A stretch of DNA of 64,000 bases from Balanoglossus misakiensis (lineage: Eukaryota > Animalia > Hemichordata), in the NCBI GenBank assembly GCA_040954595.2, contig CM082597.2:3929924-3993923 (forward strand). The letters run 5' to 3'. This document shows, one piece after another, positions 21,220 through 61,900 of the stretch. The position numbers were made by a program, and so were the translations under genes. The number at the start of each line of letters is the position of its first letter. Position 1 is the first letter of the stretch. The notes beneath the pieces were generated by a model. That model saw nothing but the letters and a program-made list of their open reading frames with translations. It made no database searches and had not been told where the DNA came from.

Positions 21220-21440
21220 GGAATGTCTGTGTGGTGGGGTTATGAATCAAACTCGGTGGTTTTGCAGAAATGAGTACTAGCCTTGTACAACAGTGTGGTC
21301 TCATGCTTTGATTTGTCGTTGGAGTCACAAGTGGCATGCATGTCGGAATGCTGACTGAGGGATATGCAGTTGCGTCCCGCACAAGCTTCGAGCTTAGTGT
21401 CAGATTGGGATCAGCGTAAAGGATAATTTATGCATTATCG

Positions 21441-21509
21441 ACCAATCAGAGAACGTTTCGATCTCACCAATCAGTGACCATGGCGCCAATGTTTGAATGG
21501 TATAAATAG
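21441..21509 (+). promoter_or_regulatory. Histone H3 promoter (CCAAT boxes and TATA)
   Basis: CCAAT near 21442, 21467 and 21486; TATAAATA at 21501. Confidence 0.75.
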
Positions 21510-21549
21510 AGAGAGCAACTGAGTGGAACCATAGGCAGTCTGAATTTGA

Positions 21550-21969
<420 letters not shown>

Positions 21970-21998
21970 ACTGTGTGCCTAGCATACACAAACATAAC

Positions 21999-22035
21999 GG
22001 CCCTTTTCAGGGCCACCACATCCTCCAAAAAGAGA
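21999..22035 (+). promoter_or_regulatory. Histone mRNA 3' stem-loop and downstream element
   Basis: GGCCCTTTTCAGGGCC (21999-22014), then ACCACA, then purine-rich AAAAAGAGA. Confidence 0.93.
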
Positions 22036-22951
22036 ACTACCGTTGTGTCTTCGTCTGTATGTCAAATTGATTTAAAAAAGCGAAAATGTGAACAGAAAAC
22101 AGGGATGAGAAATTTGGGCTAACTACATTTGCATTTGTTGTATGGTTCACAAACCCTGCTTCTATTGTTCGCAACTGAAGCCCTATCACTACACACAATT
22201 CACACATGCACAGTTCTAACAAAAGTCCGCACCACTGATGGTTGCTATGCTTGATTGGGTGATCTGCATAAATCTATCCACACAATCACAAATGCGTAAA
22301 CAATGGTCATTACCCGTACACATACAGGCCATGAAAGCGAAGTAGACCCCGATAAATAACCACTATAGGGCCACCACATCCTCCCAATAGATAACTGCCC
22401 TACGTCTGTATTGTTAATTGTTTTTTAGGGTTACCGCGGCAGTAAATCACGTTTGTAGTTCGCATTTTCAGTTCCCCCTGGTAGCATCTGGACAAGTAAA
22501 CTTGCCAAGTGGTCTACCAGTCGAATGCGCGCCTCGAATCGCTTATAGTTGTTAATCTGCTGATGAAGCAGACTTGCCAAATATAGTCAACACGCAATTG
22601 AACACAAATACTCACCAAAATATTTCAATTTGGCTACGTGCCAGATTTGAACAGGAAGCGAATTGTTACAGATCACGCATTGTCACCCACATTGACCTGA
22701 TTGAGCTAGTGTAGCCTATATAATGATCAACCACTTAATCATTGACAAATGGCCACATAGCTAGCTGTACACCTTATAGTTATATTTAGGTGTTCCGTAA
22801 GAGACGTTATACAACCGAGGATTGATTCACACCAAGAACTGTTAGTACTAAGGCCTAACCAAAACTTTTGGATTTCATATCAAGTACGGGGGAAGCTTGG
22901 GACACTTAGTTTCTTGCTTGTGCAAACCAGCTACACTGCTAGACGAGTAGG

Positions 22952-26064: not shown

Positions 26065-27903
26065 ATGGCTGACAAATGTGAACCTGGGTGCCATGGTGAA
26101 GGTGGTAACCAGAGCGATGACCTTCACCACAAAGATGCTGACGCCTGTGGACGCAGAGATGAAGCTGCATCACAAAACAAAACGGAGGGAGAAATTCACA
26201 CACACGATGATTCTGAGGAGGAATTCGAAGATACCTCAGATCCTGAAGAACTCAGGAAAATTTATGATAACCTGAGCAAAACGTACGACGAGGTATAATG
26301 CAGTAGAACACCATTTCCTTTCCTATACTCCTTACATGTATTGCATACATCCTTACCATTGGTCCAGCGCTTTCACGCAGCCATCATGAATTTGAACTCA
26401 AAGCGAGGCCAATGGGAAATAGAGCTGTCAATATGCAAAGGGGTTTCCCCATTGGTCTCGCTTTGGGTTCAAAATTACGAACACATATATTTTGGTAGTA
26501 GTGTCCGAGCTTTGACAAGGAATCTGCATTGACAACAGTTACCCAGTAACCTGTTCCCGCTTTCGTTCATTAAAGGACCTCGCAAAAGAGAATTACAACG
26601 GTCCCAGGAAAGTTGCCGAGGCACTCGCAAAAATGCTGACCGACAAAGAGGCTGAAATTTTAGACATAGGCTGCTGCACCGGACTGGTTGGAGAGGAGGT
26701 GAGTTTATATTTATTTATTTATTGATGGTCACAAATGATGCACAGATGACTAACCGCAATTTGCACGACAACATGCTGCAACATGAAAGTGATTTGTCTG
26801 AAACGATAACTATCCTTAGTCTGGTTAAAAGAAAGCCAAGCATTCTCATTGGCGAATTATACTAAACCATTGCCTAAGTCAAAGCTCATGATTATTACTT
26901 AAAAAAATAAGAGTTTTTCCAACTAAAAATATATTTATAATCTGTAAGTGATTTTTCCTGCCAGCCTATTGTTATTAGTATTGGTAGTAATCGTTGTAGT
27001 AGTAGAATAGTTGTTGTTGTTGTTGTTGCTGTTGTTGTTGCTGTTGTTGTTGTTGTTGTTGTTACTTCTACGTACAACTACTGTAACTAATTCCAATACT
27101 TCAGCAAAGACTCCTACTGTTTTATATACATGATATAGTTACACAAGGTTGGTTTCCGTAACATTGATGGTGTTGATATATCGGATGAATGTATCAAAAT
27201 TGCCCAGGAGAAGAACGTGTACAGGAGAATCGTCAACGAGGTGATTGACCCTGAAAAACAAATGAGTTTCAAATCGCGTAAGTTTTGCACACGTATATAA
27301 TGTGTCAATGTTGTATTGGGACATTGCTTGTTTGATTTTATATTGCAGTCTCAAATTAGAAAACTTTACATAACAAAATATAAATGTATTATATGCATTC
27401 AGGTATGTGTAGCATTGGCATAGATTTTCCTGTCTCCATATGTAAATTACATGTATTTGGATTTAAGTTATCATTATGAAAATAATTTGCTGGTGACCAA
27501 TGTATGTAATGCTATTCTCAGGTTCTTACGATGTAGTTATGTTGGTTGGAGGTGGGATGTTCTTGGATATCAAGATTCTTAAGGAATGGCTTCGTCTGAC
27601 AAAGGAAGGTAAATGCTGTCTTTACATCTGCTATTCACAATACAATAAGTCTTAATTATTTCAGCTTCTTGTGTTCATAATGATATTTAAACAATGAATT
27701 CTTTCTGTTTTATTTCAGATGGCTTAACCGTAATAGGAATAATGCAGAAAGAATATGAAACCGAGAAATATGCCGTTCCTGCTACGATAGACGAGTACGT
27801 AAAGCAGCGCTTGACGGAAAGGGTGAAGACAGAAATCATGGACGATTTCATCATGGGAAAACCCGGAATTGTCGAATACTTGAAACCAGTTCTCACAGCA
27901 TGA
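26065..27903 (+). CDS. METTL27/WBSCR27-like class I SAM methyltransferase, 5 exons
   Basis: Exons 26065-26292, 26576-26698, 27139-27277, 27522-27608, 27719-27903 in phase; motifs YDNLSKTYDEDL, ILDIGCCTGLVG, IDGVDIS, SYDVV, EWLRLTKEDG. Confidence 0.85.
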
Positions 27904-28770: not shown

Positions 28771-29510
28771 ATGAAGTTTGTTCTAGTTCTTCTTGCATGC
28801 TTCTTGCAGGTAAGGTGTTTCTCGAGAATTTGGTTTTCGCTGCAGGGTATTTAGGCACATCCGGTCAGCTTTCAAATCAGTCACATCTACAGGAAGTGTC
28901 TCCTGCAAATGTTACAAATTGTCACATTGTATCTGGAAGCGTACAAACTTTTGGAACTGTGACAAATTACATGAATGGTTCCGCTTACAAAGAATTGGGT
29001 CAATAACTGAGTTATGTTATATGCAGTCCAGGGTGTTCTCAAGACACAAACCGATTTTATCAAACGCCCAAATTCCAACAGTCAATAAGTAAGAGTATTC
29101 ATATATAAGTATGGGGAAGTGAGGATATATACAATAGTTTAGGATCACCGCATGGACATCAAACACTAACCTCGCCCCTAACAGATAGTTGGGATTGTTT
29201 GGGTCATAATGTCAATTGATAGATGTTCATATCCATTTATTTGTGAGCTTGACCTTGTCTCCCTTGTTTCAAAATTTCTCTTTTCTTCTCCAGAAAACTG
29301 TTGAATGCACTCGCGATAAACGTTCATATGATGGTAAGTTCTACATATCTTTTTGTTCAGGGGATTCCCTAATACTGAAACCATTTTCCATCAGCAATAT
29401 AGTGTGAATAGTTACTATGAATTCAATTCCCTGAGAAAAGTACGGCTTTTACCTTTTACACTAGGTATGATGAAAAAGGTCATATATTTTTTTAGAGGTG
29501 GTAGCAAGTG

Positions 29511-29733: not shown

Positions 29734-29801
<68 letters not shown>

Positions 29802-32506
29802 ACTAGGTGCCTCACTGATTGGTGTGACTGAAGACAAGTCACTGGTGACACGATCTGTGGGTTTCGGTGGCCAATGGAGTGTGGTCCCAAACAGCTGCTG
29901 TGTTACTCGAATCGCCGTTATGAATGACGGCACTCTACTTGGCGTTGGCGAAGATGGCTCCCTGTACACAAAACAAAGCCTGGAAGTTGGCAGGTGGACC
30001 GTCGTGGACAACAGTTGCTGCGTTGACGACGTTAGCGTTATGCCGGATGGTACAATCATAGGTGCGAGTAGGAAGAGATTGGTATACCGATCTGATCTGA
30101 ATGGTGAGTGGGTTATAGCTAAGAAGAGTATGGGCATCGTCCGAGTCGATGCTTTCAGCGACGGAAGATTAGTGGGCGTTACAGCAATGGGAGCTCTGAA
30201 AGTCAGAGATGGTATAAATGGACGGTGGAAGCTGTTGAAGAGTAGACAGTTTAAGGCGGACGACATTGCCATACAGCCAGATGGTGTTATTCTTGGTATA
30301 AAGAAGAGAGCCTGTGGAGTCCACGTTCGCAGTGACGCTGGGAGGTGGGGTTCAGAATTAACAGAAAGCAGATGTGTGATATCGATAGCTGCTCCTGGAA
30401 ACTCTGGTAAGTCACAGTTGAGCCTCAGAAAATTCTATCTGTCTATGATTGAGAGTATAGACAGTTTCATCAAGGTTAAATGAGGCATGCATAAACTAAC
30501 CTTTAAGTTTTACTGACTGACAATTATTGTGACTTTGCTGAGTTTATTTGTTGTTTTATTCACACAGAGAGTCTAGTAGAACCGGAGCCAACCGAGGCAC
30601 CACCACCACCACCCCCACCCCCTCCGACAACTGCAGCGCCACCACCCCCACCCCCTCCGACAACCGCAGCACCACCACCCCCACCCCCTCCGACAACTGC
30701 AGCGCCACCACCCCCACCCCCTCCGACAACAGCACCACCACCACCCCCACCCCCTCCGACAACAGCAGCACCGCCGCCCCCACCCCCTGAAACAACAGCA
30801 CCGCCAGTCGTAACAACAGGTAAGGAACTATGCCCAATGAATACTTATGGTGACGTATTGCATGCCATGGCATTTGCTGGGGGAAAAGAGCACACACACA
30901 TGCACAGAATTGAAAGACCGCGGGTGATTTAACATGGGAGCTACCGAGTGTCTTACCTGCCGTGCTGAACACAACACCACAGTCATGTTATGATGTTATT
31001 CCAACACACATGACAACTTTCTTCAGTAGCCTCTCAGAACAAGTGATGTTATATCCATTAGACGTAAGAAACAATTTAAGCAAGTACAATATTGAAAAAC
31101 ACAGTTAGGGAACCACTATTTATGATTTTACATGGAAGGCCTATGGAATCCTTTTAACAATACATTGTGATATCGCTACGACAGTTGTATTGACGTTAGG
31201 GGTTTATTAAAATCCATGAACCAGCTAATTTCCCCGATGTATCTAATTTATTATACAACATACGATTTATTCTTTTCTTGTGTCTCATTGTATTTTTAAC
31301 GCAATTCGTCTTTTTTTAACTTTATATACAAAGCTAAACCAATACCGCCTGGAAAACCATCAGGTAATTTAGATACAATAACGCTATTATGGATAAATGC
31401 AGTTTAAATTTATTGTCGATAAAACTGTCTTTCGAGTGGGTTTCTTGGTTGTGTTGTGTTGTGTTGTGCGGAGTTCTTTTGATTTCTGTCTTTCTTCTTT
31501 CTCTCTTTTATATTATATCATCGTTCGAGACACGCCTCTCTTCTATTCCATTTATAGGCACCTTGTATGGACTTGGTCTCGGCTATCTGATCTACAAACG
31601 AGATGGCATAAACGCGGGTGTTTGGGAAGGGCCACTTCCTAACAGTTGCTGCGTTATAGATTTTACCACTCTGGCAGACGGAAGACTGGTGGGTGTCGGA
31701 GAAGATAACCAGCTGTACGTGAAGGCTGATGACAGTGCGCCGTGGGTTGGACCGGTGGCAAATAGCGGTGATGTTACTCATATCACCGCGATGCCCGATG
31801 GTACATTGGTCGGCGTGGGTTCGGATAATCAGCTGTACACACGTCCAGGCGTAGAAGGTGTCTGGTCTGGTCCAGTGCCTGGTAGCTATGGTGTAATTAC
31901 GGTTTCAGCCATGCCTGACGGTGGATTGCTCGGTCTGGGCGTGGACGGACCGCTGTACCACCGTCCAGGTATTCAAGGAACATGGACTGGCGTGCATGAC
32001 ACTCGTCTTCTGTATGATGTCACAGTCGGCGCAGATGGCACAGTAGTTGGTGCTGAAACAGACTTCGCCATTTATAGCAAATCATCGTATGATGTACTGA
32101 CTGGTTGGGGAAATCGAATCGACGACAGCCAATTCATCTTTGCCGTATCATTTTCAAAGGTGAGTTATTAAATTTTCTTCATCAGAACTCATAAGTTCTC
32201 CGAGTTTATGACTCAGGATAGATTTACAAAGGTTGACAAGAATATATATTTACATGACTTGTATACTATTAAAAATGACGTTGACACAGATGGTGTTCCC
32301 GGATAGCATGTTTTTAGCTCATTATTGGTCCGTTAGAACACGCCAGCAATATAAGGAAGAAAAAGAAAGCGCTAAAACTGTTACACGGGCTGATTGACAG
32401 GCAATATTCATTGCTTTGAGAACACGTACGTTCTATAGTTTTATGTCTATACACTTTCATCCATTCCCAAATGAAATCTAGTTTCACTGTTTCTTTGCAG
32501 GTGTGA
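28771..32506 (+). CDS. Secreted tectonin/tachylectin-like protein: two 5-repeat beta-propeller modules joined by a Pro/Thr linker
   Basis: Exons 28771-28809, 29294-29333, 29807-30406, 30568-30819, 31558-32159, 32501-32506 in phase. Signal peptide MKFVLVLLACFLQ; ~40-aa repeats such as DGTLLGVGEDGSLYTK...W...NSCCV. Confidence 0.8.
29511..29800. repeat. Compound (GCT)n/(GAT)n microsatellites in a lectin-gene intron
   Basis: Visible trinucleotide runs at about 29511-29640 and 29723-29800. Confidence 0.95.
30598..30790 (+). repeat. 33-bp coding minisatellite encoding (PPPPPPPTTAA)n
   Basis: About 6 copies of CCACCACCCCCACCCCCTCCGACAAC.GCAGC. Confidence 0.9.
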
Positions 32507-33847: not shown

Positions 33848-36536
33848 GTATGCAAGGGACTGGCCATGGGTGACTGCAGGAGCTAGCTTCAGGACCGTAG
33901 CTCGAGGTTTGATTTGCCTTCCACACATAATAGACTCCGAGCTATGGCGCTGCAGCTAGCCATGGCCAATCCAAGTCAAATCTGTTCTGACCATTTAAAT
34001 CCTGCGTCTGTACATGTGTCGTGTAGTCGCTCCCCTGTCGTCGTCCCCTGTCCGAAGCGTGTCTTTCAATAGTTCTGTACATAATGTCCCTTGACATAAT
34101 GACCTTCATATTATACGCATTTCAGAAACATCAGACAATCTCGATGATGCGACCATTCCTGATCACCAGTACGGTTTCAGTGAACTCCCTGAAACGACAC
34201 ATGAAAAACCAAGCAATGTGTTTGAGTATGAAGATTTTTCATCCAAAGGTAGGCTGTAGTACATGTCATATGATCTTTTCTAATCGCTAACCCTAAGAAC
34301 TGTACTTTGGTTGTACAAGCATTGACTGTCCTGTACTAAGCTCTTCTTAAAACTTAATATTTCAGAGTGTCATGAAATGATGGTAGAAATCAGAAAGTAT
34401 GACGGACAGCACGAGTTTGGTCTTATGTTTGAAACAGCATGTAAGAAATTAGCACGTCTGTTTGAAGATAATTCATTGGCTGCAGCTGGTAAGTAATGCT
34501 TAAGGACTGTAAGTCCATTCTTAAGATCCGAGTGGCACTTACAAATATTTAAACTATTTTTTTTATATTATACAAATGAAAATTAAACTCTCATGAAAAG
34601 AATCAGACAAGAAGCCTTTAACAACAAAAGTGAATACATGTACATAATGTGGTACTACGCAGTGATATTTCTTGCCACAGGTATAGTGCATGAATGATTA
34701 AATTTTCTTGTATTTTGTTTGTCAACAGATGTGTCAGTTATTGTCCAGAGCCTTGCACAGCGCGATCACTTATCTGTGGAATTTCAGCCCACAGAAGGTG
34801 ATTTGCAGACAACGTTTGCTGATATCTACGCAAACCACTATGATTTGGACAGTGTGACAGTTGAATCGAGGCCGCTACTATTCGATTACTTTACCATATT
34901 CTTAAACCAGAATGAAACACAAGAAGCAAACAATGACTCAGATTTAAATAAACAACTGGCGGCAAACTCAGACGGAAAGTATGCCTGCGAGGTGTGTGGA
35001 AAGATTTTCTCAATGAGGGAAAATCTGAGGAGACACCTGAAAACGCACTTGAATTTTCGACCGTACACGTGCCTTGAGTGTGGCAATACGTTCACCGAGA
35101 ACCACTCCCTCAAAAGGCACCTCAAACTGCACGCCAACGACCGACCGCACTCGTGCAAAGAGTGCGGCAAGTCGTTCACCGAGGCCTTTTACCTGAAAAC
35201 GCACATGAAGACCCATTCGGACGACCGGCCGTACGCCTGCTCCGAGTGCGGCAAGATGTTCAAATTGCGCGGCAGTCTGCAGGTGCACCAGCGGATCCAC
35301 TCGGACGAGAGACCCTTCGCCTGCAAACTGTGCGGGAAAACGTTCCGCGAGAACGGCAGCCTGACGAAGCACACGCGGTCGCACACCAACGAAAAACCGT
35401 ACCTGTGCACGGAGTGCGGCAAGGCGTTCTCGCAGTCTAGCCACCTCAAAGTGCACCAGATGATACACGCCAACGAACGACTGTACGTGTGCAAAGAGTG
35501 CGGCAAGAGCTTCAACGAGAGCGGCACCCTGAAGAACCACGTCAGGATCCACACCAACGAAAGGCCCTTCGTCTGCAAGGAGTGCGGGAAGACGTTCTCG
35601 CGGTACAGCTGCCTGCAGAAGCACATCCCCATCCACTCGGACAGCAAGCCCTTCAAGTGCGAGGCGTGCGGCAAACTGTTCCGCGAACGGTGGATCTTGA
35701 TACAGCACGAGAGGACGCACACGAAAGTGAAACCCTACGTTTGCACGGAATGCGGAAAGGGTTACACGGTGAGCGCCAGTCTGAAAAGACACGTGCGGTG
35801 CCACTTTGACGAAAAGCCCTTCGAATGCGAGGAGTGCGGCAAGAGCTTCACGGAGAAGTGGATCCTGAGCCAGCACCTGAGGACGCACACAAACGAACGG
35901 CCGTACGTCTGCAAGGAATGCGGCCGGAGCTACACGGTCAAGGGCAGCCTGATCAAACACATGGAGAGCCACGCAAACGAGAGACTGCCAGCGCATGTGT
36001 GGAAAGAGTGCGGCGAAACTCTCATTCTGAATGACAGTTTAGTTGATCCATCAGTCATCAACACAGAAAGCGATTCATCGAGGAACCGGGTTAGTGAGGA
36101 TACCCGCACACAAAGTGACCAGAGTGATGACAGTTTACCAACGGACCAGGTTGTGTACACAGATGATTTTTCGTCGCAACAAGAGTCAGCCAATGCTGAG
36201 TGCAGTTCAACAATTAGCATTGACGAAGACAGTTTCCCAAAACAACAGCCTATTGGCATGGATGGTACTATTCCCGGGCACACAGACAACTGTTCGTCGG
36301 AGATGCAGACGGCCCTCAGAGAAGGCATGTTTCCAGAACACCAGCGGCCTGAAATCATGGACTGTAATTTACAACAACAGGACACTGATGCAGAGGACAG
36401 TAACTCCAATCATTATCAGCCGATCAGCATCGGGAATAGTTTTCTGGAGCAAGAATCAATTGGTGTTGTCGGAATGGACTGCAGTTCACAACAACAGCAA
36501 CAGGATGAACCAATAGATTATAGCTTAAAGAGTTAA
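33508..36536 (+). CDS. C2H2 zinc-finger protein (12 fingers), 4 exons
   Basis: Exons 33508-33634, 34126-34248, 34366-34488, 34729-36536; 12 CxxC...HxxxH fingers with TNERPY-type linkers plus one degenerate finger; C-terminal PIDYS. Confidence 0.88.
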
Positions 36537-40954: not shown

Positions 40955-43900
40955 TCATATACTGCTTATACATAAGGATGCATTTGTCCCTCCAAAACCA
41001 AAGCTGTTAGTTAGAGCAACTTTTCTTCCACATTGGGGCACTGTCCATGGTTGAGATTCACAAGGAACATAGTTGAGGTCAAAATCATCCGTTGTTTCTG
41101 TAAGGTTTAGTGTCGGTGGTAATATGCCCTGTAGATGAGACATATGAACGAAATTATTACATGCACAACCTCACAAATGCTAGTTCATATTCAAACCAAT
41201 TTTCCAAGAGGCATTGCTGATAAGTAAACATTTCCTTGGGATTTTCATACGACACTTTAGGAATGTACTGGCCATGCTGCAACATATCTTTACAACATTC
41301 GTGGCAGTTGAACCCATTCCAAATATCAGTGCATTGCTTGCTCAAAAATTTATGCTGGTTCCCTAGCCATCAACTCACCGTGTGGCAAGCCATCATAGTG
41401 AATGCAGCTTCCAGGGCCCCAGCAGCACCAAGTAAATGTCCAGTAGCACCTTTGGTAGAGGAGACTGCTAGATTCTGGCTGTGTTCACCAAATACTGTCT
41501 TAACTGCTCTGTTTTCTATTGCGTCTCCTGGAATTATAATAGTTTGCAATGAATGGGATGGGATGTACGAGAGGTTTAATCACACGTCAAATTTCAGTAT
41601 TTTCTCTAATACATTCATGTTAAGTTACTGACTCTCTCTCTCCCTCTCTTTCCCTCTTACACACACACACACACACACAGCTCTACATGATGAAAAAGCT
41701 AGCTGCGTCTAACTACAAACGGACAACAATCAACAAGAAGACAATAACTGTACATTACTAGTTGTGCATTACAAAATTCTGCTATTTACAGGAAATCTAA
41801 TTTTAATGCTGAGCGATGTTCTGGACGAGCACAACATACAATGCTCTCTGCTACAAGTGCACATGCCCGCATCACCTGTATTTGTACTACAGGTAACGCC
41901 AGTTGCTGTATAATAATACATTGTTACCCAGTGGAGTTGATGTGGCATGTGCATTGACATATGTTATGTCTTCTCTGTTCACACCACTATCTCTCATGGC
42001 TTGCTGCATACATCTTATTGCCCCATTCCCATCCTCACTTGGGGCAGTCATGTGACTTGCATCACCTGTTGTCATGGAAACAAAGCCAGAAATGTAAATC
42101 TTTGGCCAATCTAATTTAGACGAAAAAATGTGAACATTAATGCAATACTTGAGATGTTGGCTTTGGATCTGTTCTGAAGTGCAATATGTATACACAAAAG
42201 AATTTTTTTTCTTATCCTAGTACCAACCTGACAGGCCATATCCCAAGATTTCTGCATACATACTGGCTCCCCTGCTGATTGCATGGTTGTATTCCTGTGG
42301 AAAAAAAAAGTTATCTGAGCTCCATAGTTGTTAGACATTGCTTGAATTCAGATAACAACTAATAACTACTATACTATTCTTAGCCCATATTAAGTTAAAA
42401 ATAATTTATTTCACGAAATATCTATTTACAATTATCTTTTCAATTTCCTGTAATTTGAGACTTCGATTTACATCTCTGTCGCATTAGCTTATTTAATACT
42501 CTCCCTATGATATTCTTTCTTGATGATATTTATTAACCTGTTAATCACCATGGTTCGCCCCAACTCCATTGTTTCAATGGACCTTTATACTGGCAAATGG
42601 GGGTAAAAGGGTTAAATGTATGTTAAGTTTTTCTCGGTATATTAAATTCAATCAATGTATAAAATAATAAACCATGAATAATTCGAACGCCATTTTCCTG
42701 TTGGAATATGGCCAAGAATGCATATTAATTTTACACATATCATATTTTCATATGTTTGTACACGCTCACCTCCAGTACAACTACGACAGCGCCCTCACCC
42801 ATCACAAATCCATCTCTATCCGGATGGAATGGTCTTGACGCTTTCTCTGGACATTCATTGAACTGTGTACTCAATGCTCTTGCTCTAAAAAGCAACAACA
42901 AATTTGATGATGCAAAATTATTATATATTTTTCGCTTGGGATAAATCAATTACATGTACTTTCTTTGACCCTACAGAAATGCTCTAGGCAATATACTTGC
43001 CCCTGTAAGCACAGAACATTTATCAAATACTTCAAACATTAGCATACCTCCCATTTCAGATTTTTTATGGGATCAAAAATCAAAAACAGGATTCACCTGC
43101 AAAATCCTGCCATGGCTAGGGGGTTAATGGAGGCTTCAGTTCCCCCGGCAACCATGACATCGGCATCTCCATTCCTTACAAATCTCATGGCGTCTCCCAA
43201 CGCATGGCATCCAGTGGTGCATGCGGTGGATACAGCATGGTTTGGCCCCTGTAGACACAGAAAAAAATAAATCCTAGAAATTGACATCAATACTTTGGGT
43301 TGCCATGTGAACAGACCGAGATCTATGGTGCTGCCTAAATCTCTCATAGAGGAGCGAGTATGTGCAGCTATACAGACCCAACATTTACATTACAATAAGT
43401 ATAACATTTTCAAAAGAAAATGAGTTTCTTACCATCAGTTTGTGTTTGATACTGATGTGGCCAGCTGCCATGTTCACAAGAATTCTTGGCACAAAGTATG
43501 GACTGACTTTGTTGTAACCCTGTTGATATAAAATATATTTCATAAAAAGTATGGTTGGCAGAATTACCTCACAAGAGGTGGTTTCACATGACTTGTGTTT
43601 CTATACTTTTTTCAACAAACTAATGTTGTAAAATTTGAAAATTCAATCGAGGTAGGAAGACTGACAAAACAGGATTGAAAATATCTTTTACCATTTTACC
43701 TTAGTCCTCAGCGCAATCCCGGAATCCACTATTTCATTCAGTCCAACCATTCCCATGCCAACTGCTACACCCTGAGAATGGAGCAACTCCAATAAACATG
43801 GGTATCAGGACAGCTGCCCCCTGGGTATTTAACATCCACATGTTCCCAAACTTACCAATGGGGGAGGTGTGTGGTGGATGAATGTCCAGGGGGTGTATGT

Positions 43901-44682
43901 CCTAGAACCAATAAAAGTGGCACAGAGCAAAAATACCATACTTGGCAACTTACTGTTCTGTGTTGATCCTCTTCATTGTCTGGTGCCCACTTTGCTTGAG
44001 CGAGGGACTCCTCTGTGGCTGCCAGAGCGAATACAGTGGCTTCTGACATGCTACGTTGTTGCTGTGAAATGAGAAAGCCTTGAGTAAGACACACAGCCAT
44101 ATACATGCACAGACGCATGAATATAATTCAAGGGTACACTCTAAGGAGGACTCAATACTTATGGCTTATTATACAGATATCCAGGGGGGTCACTATCTTG
44201 ACACCATTCTATGACACACGTACCGATTTTGAGACATACTTCTCAGCTATGAACTCCCCCTCACTGTCTCCACGTGGAACATGTCCAGCTGTTTGGAAAC
44301 AGAAATGAAACACACAGTAATTGACAGTGTAATTCCTTCAATACTATTCCAAAGATGAAACAATGCCGAAAATGTTGACTTCAAGATTCACAATTGAAGC
44401 TGAAAAGAAACTGAATTTTCCATTCTGGTGTAACTTACCAACTTTAGAAGGTATTGAGTCATATCCTTCACCTTTGATTCTGGTAATTCCACTGTGACCC
44501 TGAATCAATCTGTTCCATGCGTGTTGTGTTCCCACTCCAAGTGGACATACAATACCTAAGTGTTAGGAACAATACATAAGGCCGAAGTTGAAAATTGGTG
44601 AAAGATGATTTTTTGTAAGTTTATGTGTCTATCTATCAGGAAAATTAAAATCAAATCATCATCATCATCATCATCATCATCG

Positions 44683-44735
<53 letters not shown>

Positions 44736-45211
44736 AATCTGATCATCATCATCGTCATCTCGAACTGTGGCCCAGCAGTGGAGACACATATTCGAAATAC
44801 TGATGTGTCGTGTGTAATGCATTAAGTGGTCAATTAGTTGTCAATGACCAACACACACCATATCAAAGCTGGGCGGGGTCGAGGCCCAGGCCAGGAAAGT
44901 GGGCGTGGCACGTCATGTTAGTGTTGGACAGCAAACGTCGCCCGCTCATTAGCTGCAGTACGGTAACTCCAGCTTTTGCCCGGAGTTGGGGATCCGTCGT
45001 CTACCCCTAACACCAGGCTACTGTCACCGTGATCAAGCAAAGCCTCGACCTTGGCCGTCGGTACGGAGCTGGGGACATGTGTACATAATGTGTAGTATGT
45101 ACTGTACATGGACTTACCTATGCCCGTAACTACAACACGTCGTCGACTACTCTCCGAATAGAGTCTTCGAATGATTTTTGTATGAAGACGTATCCGGCTA
45201 AATATTTTCAT
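40955..45211 (-). CDS. OXSM: Mitochondrial 3-oxoacyl-ACP synthase (FabF-type), multi-exon
   Basis: Basic presequence [19 protein letters not shown] then RRVVVTGIG; motifs STACTTG (catalytic Cys), [52 protein letters not shown] across about 12 exons. Confidence 0.95.
44655..44758. repeat. (CAT)n microsatellite
   Basis: Visible run in the first OXSM intron. Confidence 0.9.
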
Positions 45212-48200
45212 GTTTCTCAACGAGTTAGGAAGACTATTAGCGATTAATAGCGTCACGATCGCGGCGTTTTCAAAACCTTCCTTTCATCATTCATGTACGC
45301 CGCCATGTTGGGACTGCAATGTTGTGTTGTACCCTTTTACGGCTCCTGTGTGCGACGAGAATATTATGATACATCAGAATGATCAGATGCATTTATTTTT
45401 ATAACAACCATTTAGTTACTACTCACAGCTGCTAGGAAACAATAAAACTCGACTAGGTGGGATTTTTGATGGTGAAATATAAGTTGCTTGCAAATTCGTC
45501 GTAATATGCTGATTGCCGTAATGTAATGCTTATTCTAACCGAGTTAAGTGGTCTAAGAATGACCAGTCAGGAGTGTTATATTTCAACACCTTCATCACTA
45601 AGGATGCTGGACTGATGAAGACAACCAGTTCATCTCCATCTCTCTTCGACATTTCCCATTCCGACTGACAGATTATTTGACCAGAGAAGGTAAGATGCAT
45701 TGAACAATGTGTTGTGACATCTTGCAATTCTCAGCATTCTGTAAATATTATGTTGACAAACTGCAAGAGAACACATCTCTCTTTTCTTTCTCTTTTCTTA
45801 AAAAATTCCATACCATACAATATTAAGCTTGCAAGCAAGTTTTTTTGCAAATGATAAAATCTATAATGTTCTGTTACAATAAAAAGATGCAGCTAAATTC
45901 TCTCAAACTTCATCATTTCATCTTTTAATAAATATTTCTTGGGAATATAAAATATGTATATTTTATTCAAGAACGTAAGTTTTATATATTCCAAGAAATT
46001 TCCTTTATTAAATAATATCTGAATTTACCAAAAAGGCAACCACTTAGAGTTATTATAATCACACGCAGTCTGCCAAAGGCAATATATCATTAATGTAACA
46101 CTTAAAGCCGGATGCCTTAATCGTCTTGTGATCAGCAAATGGTCACAGTCATATTTGATTTATGTACACGCATTGATCTGTGACATTTACTGAGAGACAC
46201 CGGTGATAATCGTGAATCGTGTTCTGCTGCTGGGCTTAAATTGTTTGCCTGTGACTCATTCAATAATGAGGAAAAATTACTGAAATGTGCCAAATTGATG
46301 TGTATCTAATATATCAAGATATACATGTATATACATACAATATGTATATATGTATATGCATTTATACATATACACACACTATCACACACACACATACAGC
46401 TACCCCCCCCCCCAGAAACTATGAATTACACATATAGTAAACTTTATATATATTTATATAAAATACATATATAAAGTTTACTATATATGGACATATATTA
46501 TATACGAATATATAAAGATATATACACATACATGTATATATAATATATGTATATATGTATATGCATTTATATATATATAGACACACACTCACACACAACT
46601 ATCCCTCCAGCCCCCACCCCCAGAAACTATGTTGAATTACACATGTATTCACTATATGGTTTTCAGTTTTATATACAGTACTTCCCAAACCACTCAGAGT
46701 ACACAGTTACCCAGGCAATTTTAAAAAGTCTGACTTTGATAAAAGAAGTAAAAAGATATATTAATCATATATTGGTCACATTACTGCAAAGTTGACTATG
46801 TAATTACCTGGTATTACCTGGATATGTTCCCAAAATTTAGTTGCTAGGAATCAAATTAGATTCAAATGGTTACCAGGGAACAAATGTGTACATGCATTAA
46901 CATTACTGTTTGCCTAGGCTACAAAATCCATCAATATATATATTTAATTATTTGTGAAATATGAAACAGTTGCCATTTTCTCAGCAGCAGAAAACGTGAT
47001 CAAAGATCACAGGTACGTGTGACAGAGCACAACATTTCCAGACAGCACTTAAAGGTTACCCAGCAGCTGAAAGTATTTTCCCTTTAGGAGAATAATCCAC
47101 TGCCCTGTTGCCTTCCTGTTTCTGAACAAAACGCAAGGATCTGTTGAACTCTCGGGCACAGAACAGTTGTATTTATCAGTGGATTTCTGAATAGATCTCA
47201 GTATGCATATTATATAGGGTTAGATTTCTATTCAATATGCTGAATACTATATTATTCACATTTTTTCATTCCTGAGTTCCTGACAACATATTAAATATAA
47301 AACCAAATTTACTCATAAATATACCCATAGCTATAGGTGATCATGCTTGAATGAACTTAGGTATTAGGGGTGGCAATCAGGTAAAATTTACTGCATGCCC
47401 AGATTAACTGTAGATTAGTATGAACCTTTGACATTTCCAGAGCATTTATACTTCTCAGTGGATGGTAATTTTCATGAACCGTTAGTAAGGAATTAAATCT
47501 GTGTAGTGTGTGTGTGCTTTGCTGTTTTATCAAGATATCACTCTAGACTACAGATTTTTATTTTTACTGGGGGATTATGCACATATCAATATGAGTTATA
47601 TGAATCCCACAAAAATGCAATTGCTTCATAGAAACAGGCGTGTGCAATGCATAGTGTGTTAAACTAGTGTACATCAGGCAATTTCTAGAACCAGCTCTTT
47701 TATTGATGCAGATGTTATTACCAGATTTTCTGTCAATTAGCCTGATTAGGTAATTAGCTCCACTCAATATAACATTATTGACAGTTTGAATGTAGGTGAC
47801 ACCTTTTTCAACAAGGCATGTTTTCACACATTTGTGTTAATTCACAATGTGTGAAAAGAAAATTGCTCCAGTCTGATATGCATGTACACATAACCTACAG
47901 AGTAATATTCAAATATTTATTCGTCCCTTGATGACAATAAATAGGGCAAAATATCAGTATTCAGTACCACCTTTACTCACTCCAGCAATATTATATGCCA
48001 ATTCCTTTACGGTTATTGGGTGGATTATTGATGCCTGCAAATATTAAAGTTGGCAAAATTTATGAAATCATGGTTGAAAATGTTCAAATGTTACAGCACA
48101 TTACGACAGAAAAAATGTGATGTTCAAAGTATTAAGCACAATCATTCACAATACAGTTCAAACTATGTATGTGTGTGTGTGTGCAGTATCTGTGCTTTTG

Positions 48201-52900: not shown

Positions 52901-55900
52901 TGTTGACACATTGTCATTCATGAATACAAAGAGCACCCTCTGTGGTGATTTAAGCATTTGTCATGTATGATAGCGCCCCAACGGTGATTTAAGCATTTGG
53001 CATATCTTTCGTTTGTAAGGTAAACCCGTGGAGAAGATAGGCAGACTTATATTTTTCAGTGGCTCAACTGGGGAAATATTGAAGTGGGTACAGGTTCCTG
53101 ATAAACAGGAGTCTTACTATTCTCCACAGGTACATAATGTGCATTTATAGCCGTTAAAGTTATTCACCAATAATCCATTATATTGTCACTGTTGTAAATA
53201 TTACTGGTAGTTAATTCTTGTTGGTTTGTACATGTTGTGCAGTTTTATTGTTAGTAATAAGTATTGTTACTTTGTAACTTGTTGACTGTTTGTGGTAGTG
53301 GTTGTATATCTCGATGCTGGTTATTGCCGTCTGTAATTTGTGATCGGTTGAGTGTCGTTGCACTGCTAAGGTTAATGTTTACTTCAATTTGTCCAGAGTG
53401 TCTTGACTTCAAATGCAGAAGTAAGATTTGCTTGATTGTCTTGAGTTTAGATTATATTTTTTATTGAAATCTACTTATTAAATGATATGAGTAGGAACAA
53501 ATATATGCAAAATGTGATATATACTGTGAGAACAGAGGGTGGACTATACTTTGATCATAGTTCGAAACATCAAGAATGTAATAAAATACATAACATGTAA
53601 TCTGAAGAAGATAAAAAAACTGCAAATTGTATAATCATATTTATATGTCAGTACTAAAAAAATATATAATGGTTTTCATGTGCGCTATTAAAGCAAGTTC
53701 ATCTCAAAATACATTTATATTCAAATACTAAATTTAATTTCATATGCAGTATTTCATGAAAATGTAGTAGATCTGCATGTTTATCCTGTAAACCCTGCGT
53801 GTATTAAACTTCAAAGTGTACATCAACTCACTGAAACTATAATGTTATTAGTTATATAATACATCTATAATATTACTATATACTTTCCAAAAATTAGCTT
53901 ATCTTTTATAATTCTGTGCAGTACATCCCTTGATAGAGTGAAACAAGAAAATAGCATCTCAACATGAGATACATCAGACAAAAACACACTGTGTTTACAA
54001 GGAGCTGTAAGCAATGATTGCCTACACGGTTGCATTCGCATTAATTTTGTTTTTCTGGCATGACATGGTAGCATGTAAGTGACGTTCAAGTCAACATAAA
54101 ACACCCAAGGAGGGGAAGTAATTGTAATGCCCAGAATAGAAGCCAATTCAAATCTATTTTCTTCCCACTTCCCCACTACAGTCAAATATGTTTTAATTAG
54201 CACCTCTATATTGTGGAGACTTCTCTATAGTGGCAACTCCAACCCACATCCCAAACTCTAAAAGAGGAAGTTAGCTGGATGAAATGAACTCAATAAGGCT
54301 GACTTCCTTTGATAGGAAAATTATGTACTTTACCCTGTCTTGAAAACAAAAAAGCTGGGTTTTTTTAACAACCCTTCTAGTTGTATGGCCTGACCTGAAA
54401 AAGAAAATCATCTGTGAATATCTTGGAAGTTTTCTTCTTGACTGACAAGGTGTTTCCGTTCATGGTGAGAAAATAACCCCTGTGCTTAGTGCTTTCGTAG
54501 ACCACCTTGCCGGAGTCCCCAATCTGTGTCTTGTAAAATAGCCGTGGGTCATCAGTGGTCTTGTCCCTTGAAGGACTGGACATTCTGTCTGTGACGTAAA
54601 CTCTGAATTGGGATCTTTGCCGGATGTAGTACACCACAATGCAGCCATCGGTGTCTGCAAACTGTAGCAGGGTTGGCCGTTTCTGTCCCGTGCTTCTGGT
54701 TTGGTAGTAGTGTTCTTTGATGTGATCTGAATTAAAAAGTAAAATAAAATTGAGCACACCTACTGCAGGGATTCTTGTGTCAAACTTCCATCGAAACCTC
54801 TCCACCAATTTAGATTTTGTCCACCCCATTTAAAAAAGCAATGAAGTTCATCTGATTTAATTATTGCCATGAGGAAGTGGACATAAATCTAAATGAAAAT
54901 CTTAAATTTCCATACCCAATATACTTAGAAGTTCCTATCTTACTTCCCCATATTTCTGCCAAGGTGCATGAAATTAATTCAATTGTACTTCCCAAAGAAC
55001 TTCTTGTTCCTGGTAGAATGAATTTTACTGACAAAGAAGGGGCAAGTCTAAAATATACCACTGATTTATTTTTAACCCCAGGTATTAACCTAAGACATTC
55101 GACCTACTTATCATGTTACCATATATGGTAACTTATAACGTTTGAATGTTTCTTCATAATGTTTTTTTTTATTTTCAAGTAAAATTTCTAATTCTAACCC
55201 AAATGTCAACCTAGGTATAATGTGACTTTTTTGACGTTTTTGTGATTATTTATTTTTAATGATTAAATCTGCTCAAATATGCTCAATCACTAGTAAAAAC
55301 TAAATTCACGACTTAAATGGGCAAAATATTTGGTATCTTGACTAAAATTTAAATGATGGAAGTCATATCCATGTGTTACATAAATGATCATGACAAACTG
55401 TGATTTGGCATATTTTTGTATGTTGAACATCAAACATTATCAAAAGAAACTTAATTATCAAAAATAATGTCAAAAGTGAGCAAGTTTGTCTTATTAATAA
55501 TATTGCAATTGTTGATAAGTGAATTGCTTCAAAAAATACGTGAAAGGTAAACATAACAATGATAAATTACAGTATCTAAAATTACTGTCATAGTTTCTTT
55601 ACAACAAGCTACCTTTCCACTGTCAAAATTTGGTCACTGAGCCTGCTAATGGTTAAATGAACATGTTGACTAAGTAAAAGAAGATGGAAGGTTGAACGTA
55701 CACATGCAGGTTTATACTCACAATTTGATGCTGATGCTCTGGGAGTATAGGGCACTCCCATCACCATTCCTGAGTTACTTTTCAGCAAGCAGCACATAGT
55801 ATGTCTTTGTAGTGACAAAGCCACACTCTGCACAACCACATCTCCGACATCACTACAGTGCCGCAGTGGTATCCTGGTTGCAGAGCCCTCGCAGATGGCT

Positions 55901-58900
55901 TCATGCTTTTTCCGGATGACCACAGTTTCAGCTGCGACCACATATATGTATTTGCTGGCAGCGGCCGGGCACACCTTGGCACTGATGTCGCTGACTTGTC
56001 TCACTAGCTTCTTGGTCGACTTGGAAAACATCTTGGTCTGTTGCAAGCAAGCCAGAATAAAAAATAAACAATATAGTATATGAATCATGTACTCTAGAAA
56101 TAATACTTCAACACTGTTTTATATTATATAGATCAAGCAACACCATTAGAGTCCACAGGATTAGCCAAAAAATTGGCGACGAGTGGGTAAATAGGTCACC
56201 AGAACATTTATGACAAATAATACAAATTACTAGCAAATGTCACAATTGTTGTAATTATTTTTTTACTAAACTACACAGTCTGCTTGTTCATACCAGGAAT
56301 CAGTTTAGCCAATTTAACAGTGTATAGACATACAAATTTCAAATGTAAGCTGCATGGTTCATAGTACAGCAAAACACTGGAGAAAATACAATAGTTAAGG
56401 CCAAGAGATCTTCAAAAATTCAAAATGAAATTAAGTTTTTCTATAGCTAGTCTCTTCTAGTCTTTTCCTGTAGTTGTGTGTGATTGTCATACTCACTAGT
56501 GTGTTACTTCCAATGTCTGATTGAATAGACAAAGATATCTATTAGTTGACTACGTCTTTCGGTGTGTACTCCTGTGAATCCCTGTAGACTATGAATGTGT
56601 GCGTGCTGGGGAAAAGACCTTAAGTCTTTATATAGCTACCGTCTGGAAACCACAGATAATATTAGATTTCTTGAAGGGTATCATATCTGTGGATTAAAGT
56701 CCGTAGGGGATTTCCCAAATATTTTGGACACCACCACATCGTGTACACTCTGCACTTTGAAACGAGATAGTCAAATTGTACATTAACTTCCTGATTTTTG
56801 TAACAATAGGCGGGGGTGGAATTCGAAGGGCACCGTGACCCTTCACTGGAATGGCACCTAAAGACAGGTTTATTGGCCAAATGATAAAATACCGGTATAC
56901 CAAATGGAAAGCATAAGAATGTGAATATCAATGTTGACTCAGTTACACTGATAATTTTTTTATCCTTTTGCAAACAATGATTGTGTACTACTTCCCTATG
57001 TACTTTGCAATGTTCTTCTGCAAATTACTGGCTACATATATAATTATGTAGTGTTGTACCATGAACTTTGGGATTGTTTGTTTTTATAAAAGCAGAACGT
57101 CTTTGTATTAAGCAGGGAAATTATTATCCAGGGAATTTTCACCTAAAAAGTTTTAACTATAATACTGGTGTTGAAGGGTAGAAGATATAGTCAGTTGTCT
57201 TGATCAGATAGCCGATAATGGCTCCAAAACATTCTAGGTTAGAAACTCACATAAAAAAAAACATATGTGAACTTGATGATTCACTATGAGTTGGACTGCC
57301 TACATTTGTGATATCATTACCCCTCCCAGCTTTGGTGGTATGGGGATTAACTTATGTCCGCTACAACTGAACTGGAATCACCATGGGATTATACTCTAAA
57401 TGATTCACCTCGTATGATAGCCATGTAAGCCAGTTTCTGAGCGACTCCAGCTCGTGGACTGTATAATTATCCAACCCCAACTTACACCAGACTTTTTCCC
57501 ATTACACAGAGATGTGATTTAATTGAAAAAAATGCAAATTAAGGTCACAACCTGCACAATGAGCTTTCAAAATACATGGTACATACAGTATATTCCATTA
57601 GCACCGTGTTTTCATCATTAATAATTTTAACTTTTTTGGTATTAAACAGATTTATTATGACAGAAATGGCAGAGAGGTTGTACTGTTTGGCACAGGCGGT
57701 GAAACGCATGGTGGTTCTTTGTGGGCGATTGGCTTACAGGAACTATTTCAGGGACATATACATCAGGTGAGGATTATAGATTTCGATTAGATTCCAATGT
57801 TCATGGGAAGTAATGCATCAGCTGTTCCGCCAATGTGCATTTCAAATTTTTAAGTTCACATAAAGGTTTCACAATAATTCAGCAAAGACAAGCATATGAT
57901 GACAAAATATAATAAAGTTAACAAAAATAAATTACTGGTTTCTACACAGGCAAAGGAACTTTACAGGGACAACTTCAAAGGAGTGATGACCCCTCCTGTT
58001 CTGGTTGACATAACTAGCGATGGTGTCACAGATATCATCATGGCCATGTACAATTCATCAGTGCTTGCTATTAATGGAGACACGTTTGACTACATATGGA
58101 ATTTTACCATGCCGTTGTCAGAGTCATACAGGTATGGTAATTACAGATTGAGTGTTGAAGAATGTTTTCATTCAACAAAGGAGTGCAGAAAAAAATCTCT
58201 ATGGTGGTGCCGCAAAATAAAACATAATACAACAGGATTTTCATGTATTCATGAAAAATGAAACAATCTCAGCAAACAGTACATTTCAGTCATATTCTGG
58301 TTTCTTGAATTATGATATGGTACCCTATGTAACTTATATAAGTTGTCAGTAAAACAGTAATAATAGTTTATAGTTAATAACTTGTTCTTAAAATTCATCA
58401 TGTTTCTATATTACATGTAGTACCCCAGCCCCTGGCTATTATAACACTGACAATATACCAGACTTCATGGTTAAGTATGCACATGGACCAGGATTTCCTA
58501 TTTACTACTATTCACAGGTAATGTGAACTGTGTATCAGTCAATATCTCATTTAATTTACATCCCTATTTAACACTCACCAACTTAAATATGTTTTTTTTT
58601 TCTCTACAAACCTGTCTAAACCTGAAAACTAAAAGACTAAGAAATTGTTGAGTTTACAGAAGTAACATGGTGTCCTATCTGAAAGGGACTGGAAAAGCTG
58701 TTCAGATTAAACAGGTTTCTTCATTAAATAGTGTTTGGATTAGACAGGTTTGACTATATGATTTTGATTGAATTCTCGTCAAATTCAAATATCACTAATG
58801 GCACAATATCCACTTGCTTTATTTTGGATAAGCTGTTTCATAGTACACTGACATTTGTTTGTTTGTTTGTTTGTTTGTTTGTTTGTTTGTTTATAGAGCA

Positions 58901-61900
58901 CCATTCTAGATGGCAAAACAGGCAAAGCATTACTGAAACCGTACATAAAAGACACAATAGGTTCTCAGAACTCACCCCTGACTGTGAGTATGGAAGGGCA
59001 TGGCAATGACATCTTCCTCTACTGGATAAGTGACTGTGAGAAACATGAAGGTGAACATGACAAAGAATTCACATTTGTGGAAGGTTTGTAAAGATTTCAA
59101 AATTTATGTTATTCTATTCAGATGTTGGCAGACTGAAATTCTCAATACACATTGTACAGTAAAATGTGTCTTAATTACAAAATTAACCTATAGCTAATTC
59201 AGTTAAGTGTGTAAATTCGCTAATTTGATATGCCTCTAATTAAAACTTTTCTCTATATTGTAACCATGGTGAAAGTGTTGTTATAGCTAAATTACCAGTA
59301 CATGTTATTGGCTATCAGGTAATTGCAGAAATATATGATTCTGTGGCCAACAAAAGTTCATTTGCATAAAGAAGTGTGCCGCAACCATGATCTACTTAGA
59401 CAAATCCTGTTAATCACAGACTAGTTTGGCTGCCTTTTAGTGTTTCTGTACACAGGAATAAGTGCTGTTTTTATGTCTTTGATACAATGTATGTCGTTTT
59501 TTATATCACATCATAGGTACCAATGTACATGAACAAAGTCGGTCAGATTTGTGTAAACTACGATTCAATTCCAAAGAATATACCAGACTGTACATGATGA
59601 ATAGACAATCTGGAGCCCTAGGAACTGTTTTGTATGATTCTGGTAAGTCGTCAAATTTTGTGCTCGACGAAAGTCATGATGGTCAAACTATACCCCAAAA
59701 TGACAACCAGAATATATTTAAAGGGAAGTAAAAATGCAAAAGTCCCCTACCACAACTTTAAATTAATTTTAATCAGATATGGTCTTCACATATTATTTAA
59801 CAGAGGAAAGATGGGAGCTTGAACATCGGAATGTGGTAAATACATCAGCTATGGCTTGGCAGTATGTCCAAAAACATCCACAGTTCAAGAAAACTTACCT
59901 GAAGCACCTTGAAAGACAGAAACAGCTCGAAAAAGAAGCAGAGAGTGGGCAGAAAGTTGACAGAACAGAGAATAAAGATTTTTCTGTTGAAGCAGAAACG
60001 TCAACGCCAAAGCAGACACACAATTTAATGGGCAAGAAAGCTAGGAAGGAGTATTCACAGACAGCTGGGCAGGAATCAGGTCCTACCAGAAACAAGAATT
60101 TCGGAGCTGATAGGGATAATGACAACAGGAATGATTTGGAAAATTTGTATCGTCGCTTTGGTTATCGTTATCCCCTGGGAAACCCACCAAATGCAGGCTA
60201 CTGGGAGGGGCAAAGACCAGGGAGATATCCGTATCCAGGTGTTTCAGGTACAGCTTGGCCGATGGATCCTGAAATAAACTCAAGACAACTTGAAGATAGA
60301 GTAGACGGGAGAGGAGGCACTGATCACAGATATGGCAGTAACGCGAACTCAGGTTATCAAAATAGTTTGCGAGACCGTGATCGACCTATCCCCGGAGGCC
60401 AGACAGGAATTAATGGACAGCACCAATATTCCACAAATCCGTATCAGACATATCATACACAAGTACCCATGGCTCCCACGGATGAGCAATCTGAATCGTT
60501 AGACTATCCCAGTGAGTTCTGGAAGTATTTCTTTGGTGAGCCTGAGGAAGGGGAGTATCTGAGACCTGCAGTGAATGAGGGCTATTCAAGTGGACACAGA
60601 CCAGGCAAACAGGAAGAAAAAAGATCAAAAGCTGTGAAAACACAAAATAGCCACATTGCGGCACAAACTAACTCTCAAACTCTAAACAAGAAATCTCGAA
60701 ATTTAGGGAGACTGGACAAACGTTCGACAAGTTTTTCTGATGTTGACGTTAACCATAACCTCAAGAGATTCCAGAAAAGAAATATAGCATACAATGGCGG
60801 CGGCCAGTTTCAAAATTTAAGGCATAGGTTTGATAAAATTTTTGTGGCAGAAGATGATCTCAGTGGCGTACATAGCCCATATATTGACAATCATAATGTA
60901 AATCATGAAGATGAACCAACACAAAGTTCAAAGGACGGACAAAAAATTGAGGTGCGAGAGGATACTACTGTTGAGAGAAAGGAAATAAACCCAAAACTGT
61001 CAGACCACTACAAACAAGTGGATCAAAGTGAAAAATTTATTAAAGAAATCCAACCAAACATTCGCAAGAGGAAGAAACGGCATGTTGGTTCACATGATGA
61101 TGGAGGTCTTCAGAGACTTTTGTCGACAGGGACGTTAGCTCCTACACTGAACTCTTCCAGCAGGGATGCCGGGCATAGCATCGATGTAATCTTTGCAACC
61201 TACTGGTTTTACCCTGCTAAGACTAGAGTTGTGTTTCCAGATCAACAGAAGTGTATTGATGATATGATGAACGATGAAGTTCAGAGATTTGATCCAAATA
61301 GTAAGTATATAGCCAGTAAATAAAACACTGCTTGTGTACAATAGATCCTATTGATCAAACAGTATAAATTTAACATACCGTTATGTCAGGAATTTATGAT
61401 TCACTATTTGTGTATTAGTCCTTGGTTTATTGCAAGACATGGCATTTGACTACTGCATACTGTTTTGAATACATGTACACTATTTGAACAACTCTACTTC
61501 AGCAACATAGCCCAAATACCTTCAGACTTACTTATTATTTTCTGATTCAGATGAATTTTATGGTGATGATCATGATGCATATGAAGACAAAGTGAGAGGA
61601 AAATGTCTTGGAGAAGGTGAGTAAGGCATGATCCATCTGTACACACACCAGTTGCAACACGATAAAATTAACACATATTATAAACACACAAAAATACCTA
61701 CCAATAGCACAATACATGCAAATCTGTATGAATTAATGTGATTAATGATACTATCTAAACCATTTTCTCCTTTATTTTATTTTTTACTCAATAACAGCTG
61801 TGTCTGTAGTTATTTTATTAGTTATTTTTTCCTCATAGTCTTTTTTATCAGTGGATTTCGCATGTACAACTTCAGTTGATCTTTTTACAAATTATGGTTT

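Follow-up and report, generated by a model that had tools for sequence, protein, structure and literature searches.

The question raised by this locus is whether a short stretch of an acorn worm genome is a promoter that responds to NF-kB, and what kind of gene it would drive. The stretch lies in 64,000 nucleotides (nt) of Balanoglossus misakiensis DNA (assembly GCA_040954595.2, contig CM082597.2; hereafter the window, whose own positions are used throughout), upstream of a small minus-strand gene that is nested in an intron of a plus-strand host gene. An earlier note had described an inflammatory-type promoter for the nested gene, with a non-coding first exon, a TATA box, two kB sites and an AP-1 site, and had concluded that the gene is immune-inducible. 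Our analysis indicates that the region is likely an NF-kB-type promoter of a PDZ-less hemichordate gene resembling interleukin-1 (IL-1), with the inducibility read from its motifs. The features concerned are listed below, with negative numbers counted from the predicted start.

57131-57140, within 57115..57140, plus strand: weak kB-like site GGGAATTTTC, found with the relaxed pattern.
56935..56941, not stranded: AP-1 site TGACTCA, -341 to -335, at chance level.
56786..56793, minus strand: ETS-type site CAGGAAGT, about -190, weak, with 11 in the window.
56706..56716, not stranded: strict kB site GGGGATTTCCC, -116 to -106, in which two matches to the consensus overlap.
56627..56634, minus strand: TATA box TATATAAA, -34 to -27.
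56497..56600, minus strand: predicted non-coding exon 1, with an initiator A at 56600; the start may lie at 56600-56604.
56496-56491, minus strand: donor GTGAGT, from the motif scan.
56038..56496, minus strand: predicted intron 1, 459 nt, GTGAGTAT...CAG.
55722..56037, minus strand: exon 2, with the start codon at 56031 and codons 1-103; 63% identity over 93 amino acids (aa) to a Ptychodera flava protein.
54727..55721, minus strand: intron 2, 995 nt, phase 1, the sole coding intron; frame and homology continue across it.
54377..54726, minus strand: coding part of exon 3, the C-terminal half of a likely beta-trefoil, and the stop; 73% identity over 114 aa to the P. flava protein.
53460..53465, minus strand: candidate poly(A) signal AATAAA, predicted, about 0.9 kb past the stop.
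53130..57649, plus strand: host intron, 4520 nt, phase 0, with the frame open across the junction.

A motif scan recovered all five motifs named in the earlier note (donor, TATA box, kB site, AP-1 site and distal kB-like site) at the positions it had assigned to them. The predicted first exon contains no ATG when read from 56604 to 56497, measures 104 nt from 56600 and ends at a donor, 56496, that ranks first among the 105 minus-strand GT dinucleotides in 56060-57640 by U1-consensus match and duplex energy. The non-coding exon proposed at about 56600-56497 stands as a prediction from sequence. The window holds 91 TATAWAWR matches. None of the others has a flank as rich in GC as that of the box at 56634-56627, and 14 of the 91, this box included, are followed at 28-36 nt by a BBCABW initiator, here with its A at 56600. 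As far as the sequence shows, the layout is that of a TATA promoter, in which the box precedes the initiator by roughly 30 nt. The strict kB site, a match to the consensus GGGRNWYYCC in the putative proximal promoter, sits 72 nt beyond the TATA box, in keeping with the ~70 bp proposed earlier, and its 11-mer is unique in the window. Motifs of the ETS, RUNX, GC-box, CCAAT and C/EBP-like types are about as frequent as expected; standard consensus patterns were used for these and for AP-1, TATA and the initiator. The kB consensus is documented in PMC6868378, where GGGGATTTCC also serves as the kB site of a reporter. An imperfect 23-nt inverted repeat at 56636-56706 spans the gap between the TATA box and the kB site and contains a RUNX-like TGTGGT. 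We rejected it as a structural element, its folding z-scores being -1.5 and -2.0 and 19 such 9-mer hairpins occurring in the window; a scan of 53000-57700 against Rfam gave no match.

To compare this arrangement with chance, we made dinucleotide shuffles of the 1583-nt segment that separates the acceptor of exon 2 from the neighbouring host exon. Single elements were common: a TATA box appeared in 2498 of 5000 shuffles, an AP-1 site in 1142 and a strict kB site in 294. Combinations were rarer, with a TATA box, an ATG-free exon and a donor together in 103 of 5000 shuffles and a kB site within 150 nt of a TATA box in 20 of 5000. The full module, comprising a strict kB site within 150 nt of a TATA box together with the ATG-free exon and donor, appeared in none of the 5000 shuffles and none of 76 real tiles of the window; with all motifs relaxed, it was found in 7, 22 and 39 of 2000 shuffles at distances of 150, 500 and 1000 nt, and again in none of the 76 tiles. 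Strict kB sites occur at four loci in the 64 kb, one of them inside a host coding exon. Outside this promoter they fall in 12 of 1267 real 200-nt windows (~1%) and in 30 of 1255 real 500-nt windows, both sets overlapping. The donor rank, the TATA flank and initiator, and the frequency of kB sites in the window are checks that depend less on selection, and they agree with the module test. These data support the conclusion that the TATA box and its initiator, the exon free of ATG, the donor that ranks first and the strict kB site close to them jointly exceed chance, and the module of TATA box, kB site and exon 1 is probably real.

The nested gene and its promoter lie wholly inside the host intron 53130-57649, antisense to the host, which we call FAM234-like because its exons give weak Pfam matches to FAM234 and FG-GAP, all below cut-off. 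The gene is present once within the window, and its two coding exons encode a product of 219 aa with an isoelectric point (pI) of 9.7. The only close relative found is an uncharacterised P. flava protein of 222 aa, entered under XP_070549042.1 and XP_070549059.1; the two entries are identical, map to one contig and may be variants of the untranslated region (UTR) or a duplicate gene. The identities of 63% and 73% to this protein indicate a conserved coding gene. The P. flava orthologue starts at the matching Met, ahead of which the predicted 5' UTR carries two in-frame stops, so that no coding or PDZ exon could be added through the exon-1 route. The second intron, which is supported by homology, begins with the same donor 8-mer as intron 1, GTGAGTAT, of which the window holds five copies. 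Alternative poly(A) signals (ATTAAA) lie at 54197 and 53738. No clear mark of a retrocopy was seen, the host intron containing only two A/T runs. Word-based searches recovered the P. flava protein alone (1 of 1 and 1 of 86 candidates; 0 of 3308 longer proteins), which is weak evidence, and a profile search of 1.84 billion representative proteins returned it with one AbfB protein only. A metagenome match (L001) was dismissed as a chance match to the antisense strand of a bacterial-looking open reading frame (ORF).

The reading that we favour, by slightly better than an even chance, is that the region forms the core promoter and the proximal promoter of a likely IL-1-type cytokine gene, nested antisense in its host, which NF-kB would switch on through the site at -116 to -106. 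RNA polymerase II would quite probably start about 30 nt after the TATA box, near 56600, and the 104-nt exon would be spliced to exon 2. Upon immune challenge, TLR- or IL-1R-type signalling would free a Rel/NF-kB dimer, which would bind about 70 bp from the TATA box and recruit TBP and the polymerase, perhaps with ETS, RUNX or C/EBP factors as partners; this signalling, binding and recruitment step, on which NF-kB inducibility depends, we rate as marginally probable. The leaderless pro-cytokine made from the spliced message would leave the cell by an unconventional route, perhaps once it has been cleaved. The P. flava protein shares Asp61 and Asp64, and a cut at these residues would leave 158 or 155 aa, compared with 154-166 aa for solved IL-18/IL-37 chains; release of a fragment of that length is a tentative suggestion. 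The likely origin of the gene is a copy of a member of the IL-1anc family, with few introns and no PDZ domain, and its antisense transcription could disturb expression of the host. We propose this mechanism because hemichordates encode TLR, IRF and NF-kB (PMC10210618), in cnidarians the factor recognises conserved kB sites and activates a reporter in a kB-dependent way, with a kB promoter validated in Nematostella (PMC10329013), IL-1anc genes of sea urchin, lamprey and anemone are reported as inducible on challenge (PMC13736523), and human IL1B provides a precedent, its NF-kB-dependent induction, which the earlier note had invoked, being confirmed in print (PMC3731334).

Several points count against this explanation. 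The shuffle and tile figures overstate significance, since the tested pattern was chosen after the sequence had been viewed; the claim that the promoter evidence is independent of protein similarity therefore holds in part, the region having been selected because of the gene. AP-1 sites in the window are at background (7 against 6.3 expected), and the relaxed kB pattern gives 13 strand-hits against 9.0 expected, so that the site at 57131-57140, which has a GGGAAA half-site 16 nt away and is part of a short tandem duplication, tells little when taken alone. Neither site can serve as the promoter support that it was first taken to be, and the AP-1 site should be dropped from the argument. Neither AP-1 sites nor AU-rich elements are enriched above chance; the ~0.9 kb of predicted 3' UTR holds two ATTTA motifs against a background of 2.3 per kb. 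No CpG island was seen at the promoter, where the observed/expected CpG ratio of 0.51-0.59 is slightly above that of its neighbours and below the 0.9 reached near 49.8 kb. In Nematostella, a kB site within 500 bp was reported for 20% of the top NF-kB-module genes and 8% of random ones (PMC10329013), a difference of ~2.5-fold in odds that makes a kB site a weak predictor of regulation. In the account of sea urchin genes in PMC13736523, adults showed no induction of SpurIL-1.3 or SpurIL-1.4. The immune-inducible promoter first proposed thus keeps a proximal module above chance and loses the AP-1 and distal kB-like sites as support.

These points leave room for a promoter and exon 1 that are real in a gene that is constitutive or tissue-specific, with an incidental or minor kB site, as in the non-induced IL-1anc paralogues or IL-18. 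The unaltered sea urchin genes, the gut-specific SpurIL-1.1 described in the same source (PMC13736523), the constitutive IL-18 of trout (PMC7144542), the 8% of random anemone promoters with a predicted kB site, the chance-level AP-1 and AU-rich motifs and the best weak matches in the PDB, which are to IL-18/IL-37 and not IL-1beta, all accommodate that reading. We consider it rather unlikely given the ~1% of 200-nt windows with a strict kB site and the placement of this one, a window-unique 11-mer with a double consensus, 72 nt from the TATA box with the best flank. The donor at 56496 might instead close an internal or longer first exon, with the true start further upstream or outside the host intron. 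A second TATA-like box, TATAAAAA at 57088-57081, lies 43 nt from the weak kB-like site and could serve as an alternative; a pyrimidine-rich AG at 56606 adjoins the predicted start, another AG at 56687 reaches 6.5 bits, a value that true acceptors also give, and the two P. flava accessions for one protein could reflect UTR variants or two copies. The 57088 box, however, has no initiator at the right distance, no upstream donor ranks above 56496, and the AG at 56606 has a score of 0.3 bits in a rough acceptor matrix built from 15 hand-picked window junctions, whose own leave-one-out scores have a median of ~8 (range -4.6 to 9.8); none of the 15 was dropped, including the one at -4.6. The low score at 56606 weakens the internal-exon reading, the AG at 56687 speaks for it, and a start elsewhere seems improbable.

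The product itself is probably a leaderless, basic, 219-aa IL-1-like beta-trefoil. The sole Pfam match of the P. flava protein is IL1 (E=0.026), and profile searches of the PDB from the window and P. flava proteins gave IL-18/IL-37 in 4 of 6 and 2 of 3 weak matches at E<=10. The YES motif at residue 180 is of the (F/L)ES type and is aligned to the FES of IL-18 in a PDB profile match, and a comparison by eye shows a close resemblance between its ~40 surrounding residues and SkowIL-1.1, PflaIL-1 and BfloIL-1 as given in Table S2 of PMC13736523. The N-terminus is basic, with the most hydrophobic 11-mer beginning at residue 29 and no signal peptide evident on inspection; neither the window protein nor the P. 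flava protein has a PDZ match in Pfam. The alternative is another beta-trefoil (lectin-like, AbfB/CBM42-like or FGF-like) that is no cytokine, which may still be an NF-kB-induced effector. The Pfam IL1 match reaches 14.6 bits, below the curated cut-off of 25, whereas window exon 3 alone matches the AbfB trefoil in Pfam (E=0.011), and the AbfB protein returned by the profile search is the sole other match there (E=6e-4). The IL-18/IL-37 matches in the PDB have E values of 0.27-1.9, none significant, and phmmer found no match for the P. flava protein in the PDB. AlphaFold models are of low confidence (predicted local distance difference test scores, pLDDT, of 31 and 33), the second with eight C-terminal strands, and Foldseek on a low-confidence model returned nothing significant, with PliC proteins at the top and IL-1 entries at ranks 5, 6, 12, 17 and later. 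The vertebrate IL-1 PROSITE signature is absent from the nested-gene protein, as are the PDZ domain and the second trefoil intron, and the pI is high. However, the full-length P. flava orthologue matches Pfam IL1 and nothing else, the PDB matches favour IL-18/IL-37, and the likeness to hemichordate IL-1anc proteins around the ES motif is high by eye. The AbfB protein also cross-matches the IL1 and IL33 profiles, which suggests that its match marks a shared fold motif, and according to PMC13736523 HMMER fails on invertebrate IL-1 members generally. We regard a trefoil of another kind as quite improbable.

Within an IL-1-like identity, the closest known counterparts are the IL-1anc proteins of invertebrates and fish (Fontenla-Iglesias et al. 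2026, PMC13736523), among them PflaIL-1 (XP_070538561.1), SkowIL-1.1 and SkowIL-1.2. Resemblances to the members described there are an (F/L)ES-type motif with similar flanks, here YES, no evident signal peptide and a trefoil-sized C-terminal region of ~155 aa. Several IL-1anc members are challenge-induced, whereas inducibility of the nested gene is predicted from its sequence. The nested gene falls outside the strict IL-1anc definition, having no PDZ domain and one coding intron. All three hemichordate entries in Table S2, one from P. flava and two from Saccoglossus, have PDZ; PDZ-less members listed elsewhere in that source are crinoid AjapIL-1.1 and crustacean PclaIL-1.2, PclaIL-1.3 and PvanIL-1.2, which it counts as secondary losses. 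Unlike IL-1anc genes, in which the trefoil spans 3-5 exons with two conserved central introns, the nested gene has one phase-1 intron, 76 codons before YES, and it further differs in its basic pI and its position in a FAM234-like intron. In typical IL-1anc genes the exons number ~8 and the second and third encode PDZ (peer-review file of PMC13736523). A nested gene of three exons is therefore likely to be a derived form, and its resemblance in layout to IL1B likely to be convergent. None of the genes linked to IL-1anc loci (GCC2, ESD, EIF2A, IL-1R) was recognised by eye among the ORFs within the 64 kb.

Exon 1 of vertebrate IL1B is non-coding, which the earlier note had taken as a parallel to the predicted exon 1. 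The human IL1B promoter likewise combines a TATA box with a kB site, which is essential there and a sequence match here, and its ETS-family and C/EBP inputs have weak ETS and C/EBP-like motifs as counterparts (PMC3731334). Its key kB site, however, lies near -300 with PU.1 and C/EBP-beta and its enhancer near -3000, whereas the present site lies at -116 to -106 with only ~1 kb of host intron upstream. Given these differences and the ~8 exons of typical IL-1anc genes, the likeness is likely convergent, probably analogy rather than homology. The Nematostella TRAF3 promoter is likewise an invertebrate proximal promoter with kB sites, three and experimentally validated, compared with one strict predicted site here (PMC10329013). 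Nesting of genes is common, and the pairs described in PMC11694760 also have a whole gene in one intron, with transcriptional interference possible.

Other features were seen in the window. At 8854-24898 lie four long single-ORF genes with RING, B-box and coiled-coil regions (frames of 734, 788, 829 and 651 aa; names by eye), two of them near-duplicates ending in NHL-like repeats and two with proline-rich tails; a histone H3 ORF (by eye) is at 21550-21969. ORFs at 29800-32171 carry tandem short repeats and a proline/threonine-rich linker and resemble tachylectin/tectonin-type beta-propellers. Two strict kB sites occur at 26440-26449 and 29360-29369, the latter with a TATA box on the minus strand 252 nt downstream of it; the ORFs near 29800-32171 may be further immune genes. 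A 612-aa C2H2 zinc-finger ORF lies at 34698-36536, and 41000-45283 holds a gene of several exons on the minus strand, apparently head-to-head with the FAM234-like host, whose motifs recall beta-ketoacyl synthases and which looks OXSM-like by eye. Within the FAM234-like gene, 59773-61323 is a 516-aa single-exon frame of low complexity with dibasic and RKRKKR sites and no Pfam match, unusually long for one exon and possibly a cleaved insert. The observed/expected CpG ratio is ~1.0 in the first 21 kb and lies mostly between 0.2 and 0.6 from 40 to 64 kb, which suggests a boundary between unmethylated and gene-body-methylated domains.

The nested gene is likely an uncatalogued PDZ-less, intron-poor, IL-1-like gene of hemichordates. 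No paper on it, or on a hemichordate IL-1 promoter, was found in the literature searched, most subscription papers falling outside that literature. Invertebrate IL-1 homologues were described in 2025-2026 through a screen that started from PDZ and may have missed divergent members (PMC13736523); in that source, 'promoter' and 'FAM234' do not occur in the main text, 'promoter' does not occur in the seven supplements, and XP_070549042.1 and XP_070549059.1 are absent from the supplements. Its peer-review file mentions more than 80 further ambulacrarian members, which may include the lineage of the nested gene. It is conceivable, if doubtful, that acorn worms possess a second, uncatalogued IL-1 lineage. 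Its PDZ domain and most of its introns would have been lost, the gene would have settled in antisense orientation in an intron of a FAM234-like gene, and a design like that of IL1B would have evolved there independently: a TATA/kB promoter of small size, a first exon without coding sequence and a short pro-piece that cleavage at a conserved aspartate could remove. If so, a convergent IL-1beta-like cytokine would exist in the sister group of chordates, with a direct link from NF-kB to IL-1 within ~120 bp in an invertebrate. The promoter type is ordinary, and the main value of the locus lies in the gene, whose promoter is compact enough to be tested: a single mutation of 11 bp could probe direct NF-kB control of an invertebrate IL-1-type gene. 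Such control bears on whether the loop between NF-kB and IL-1 is older than vertebrates or has been rebuilt repeatedly.
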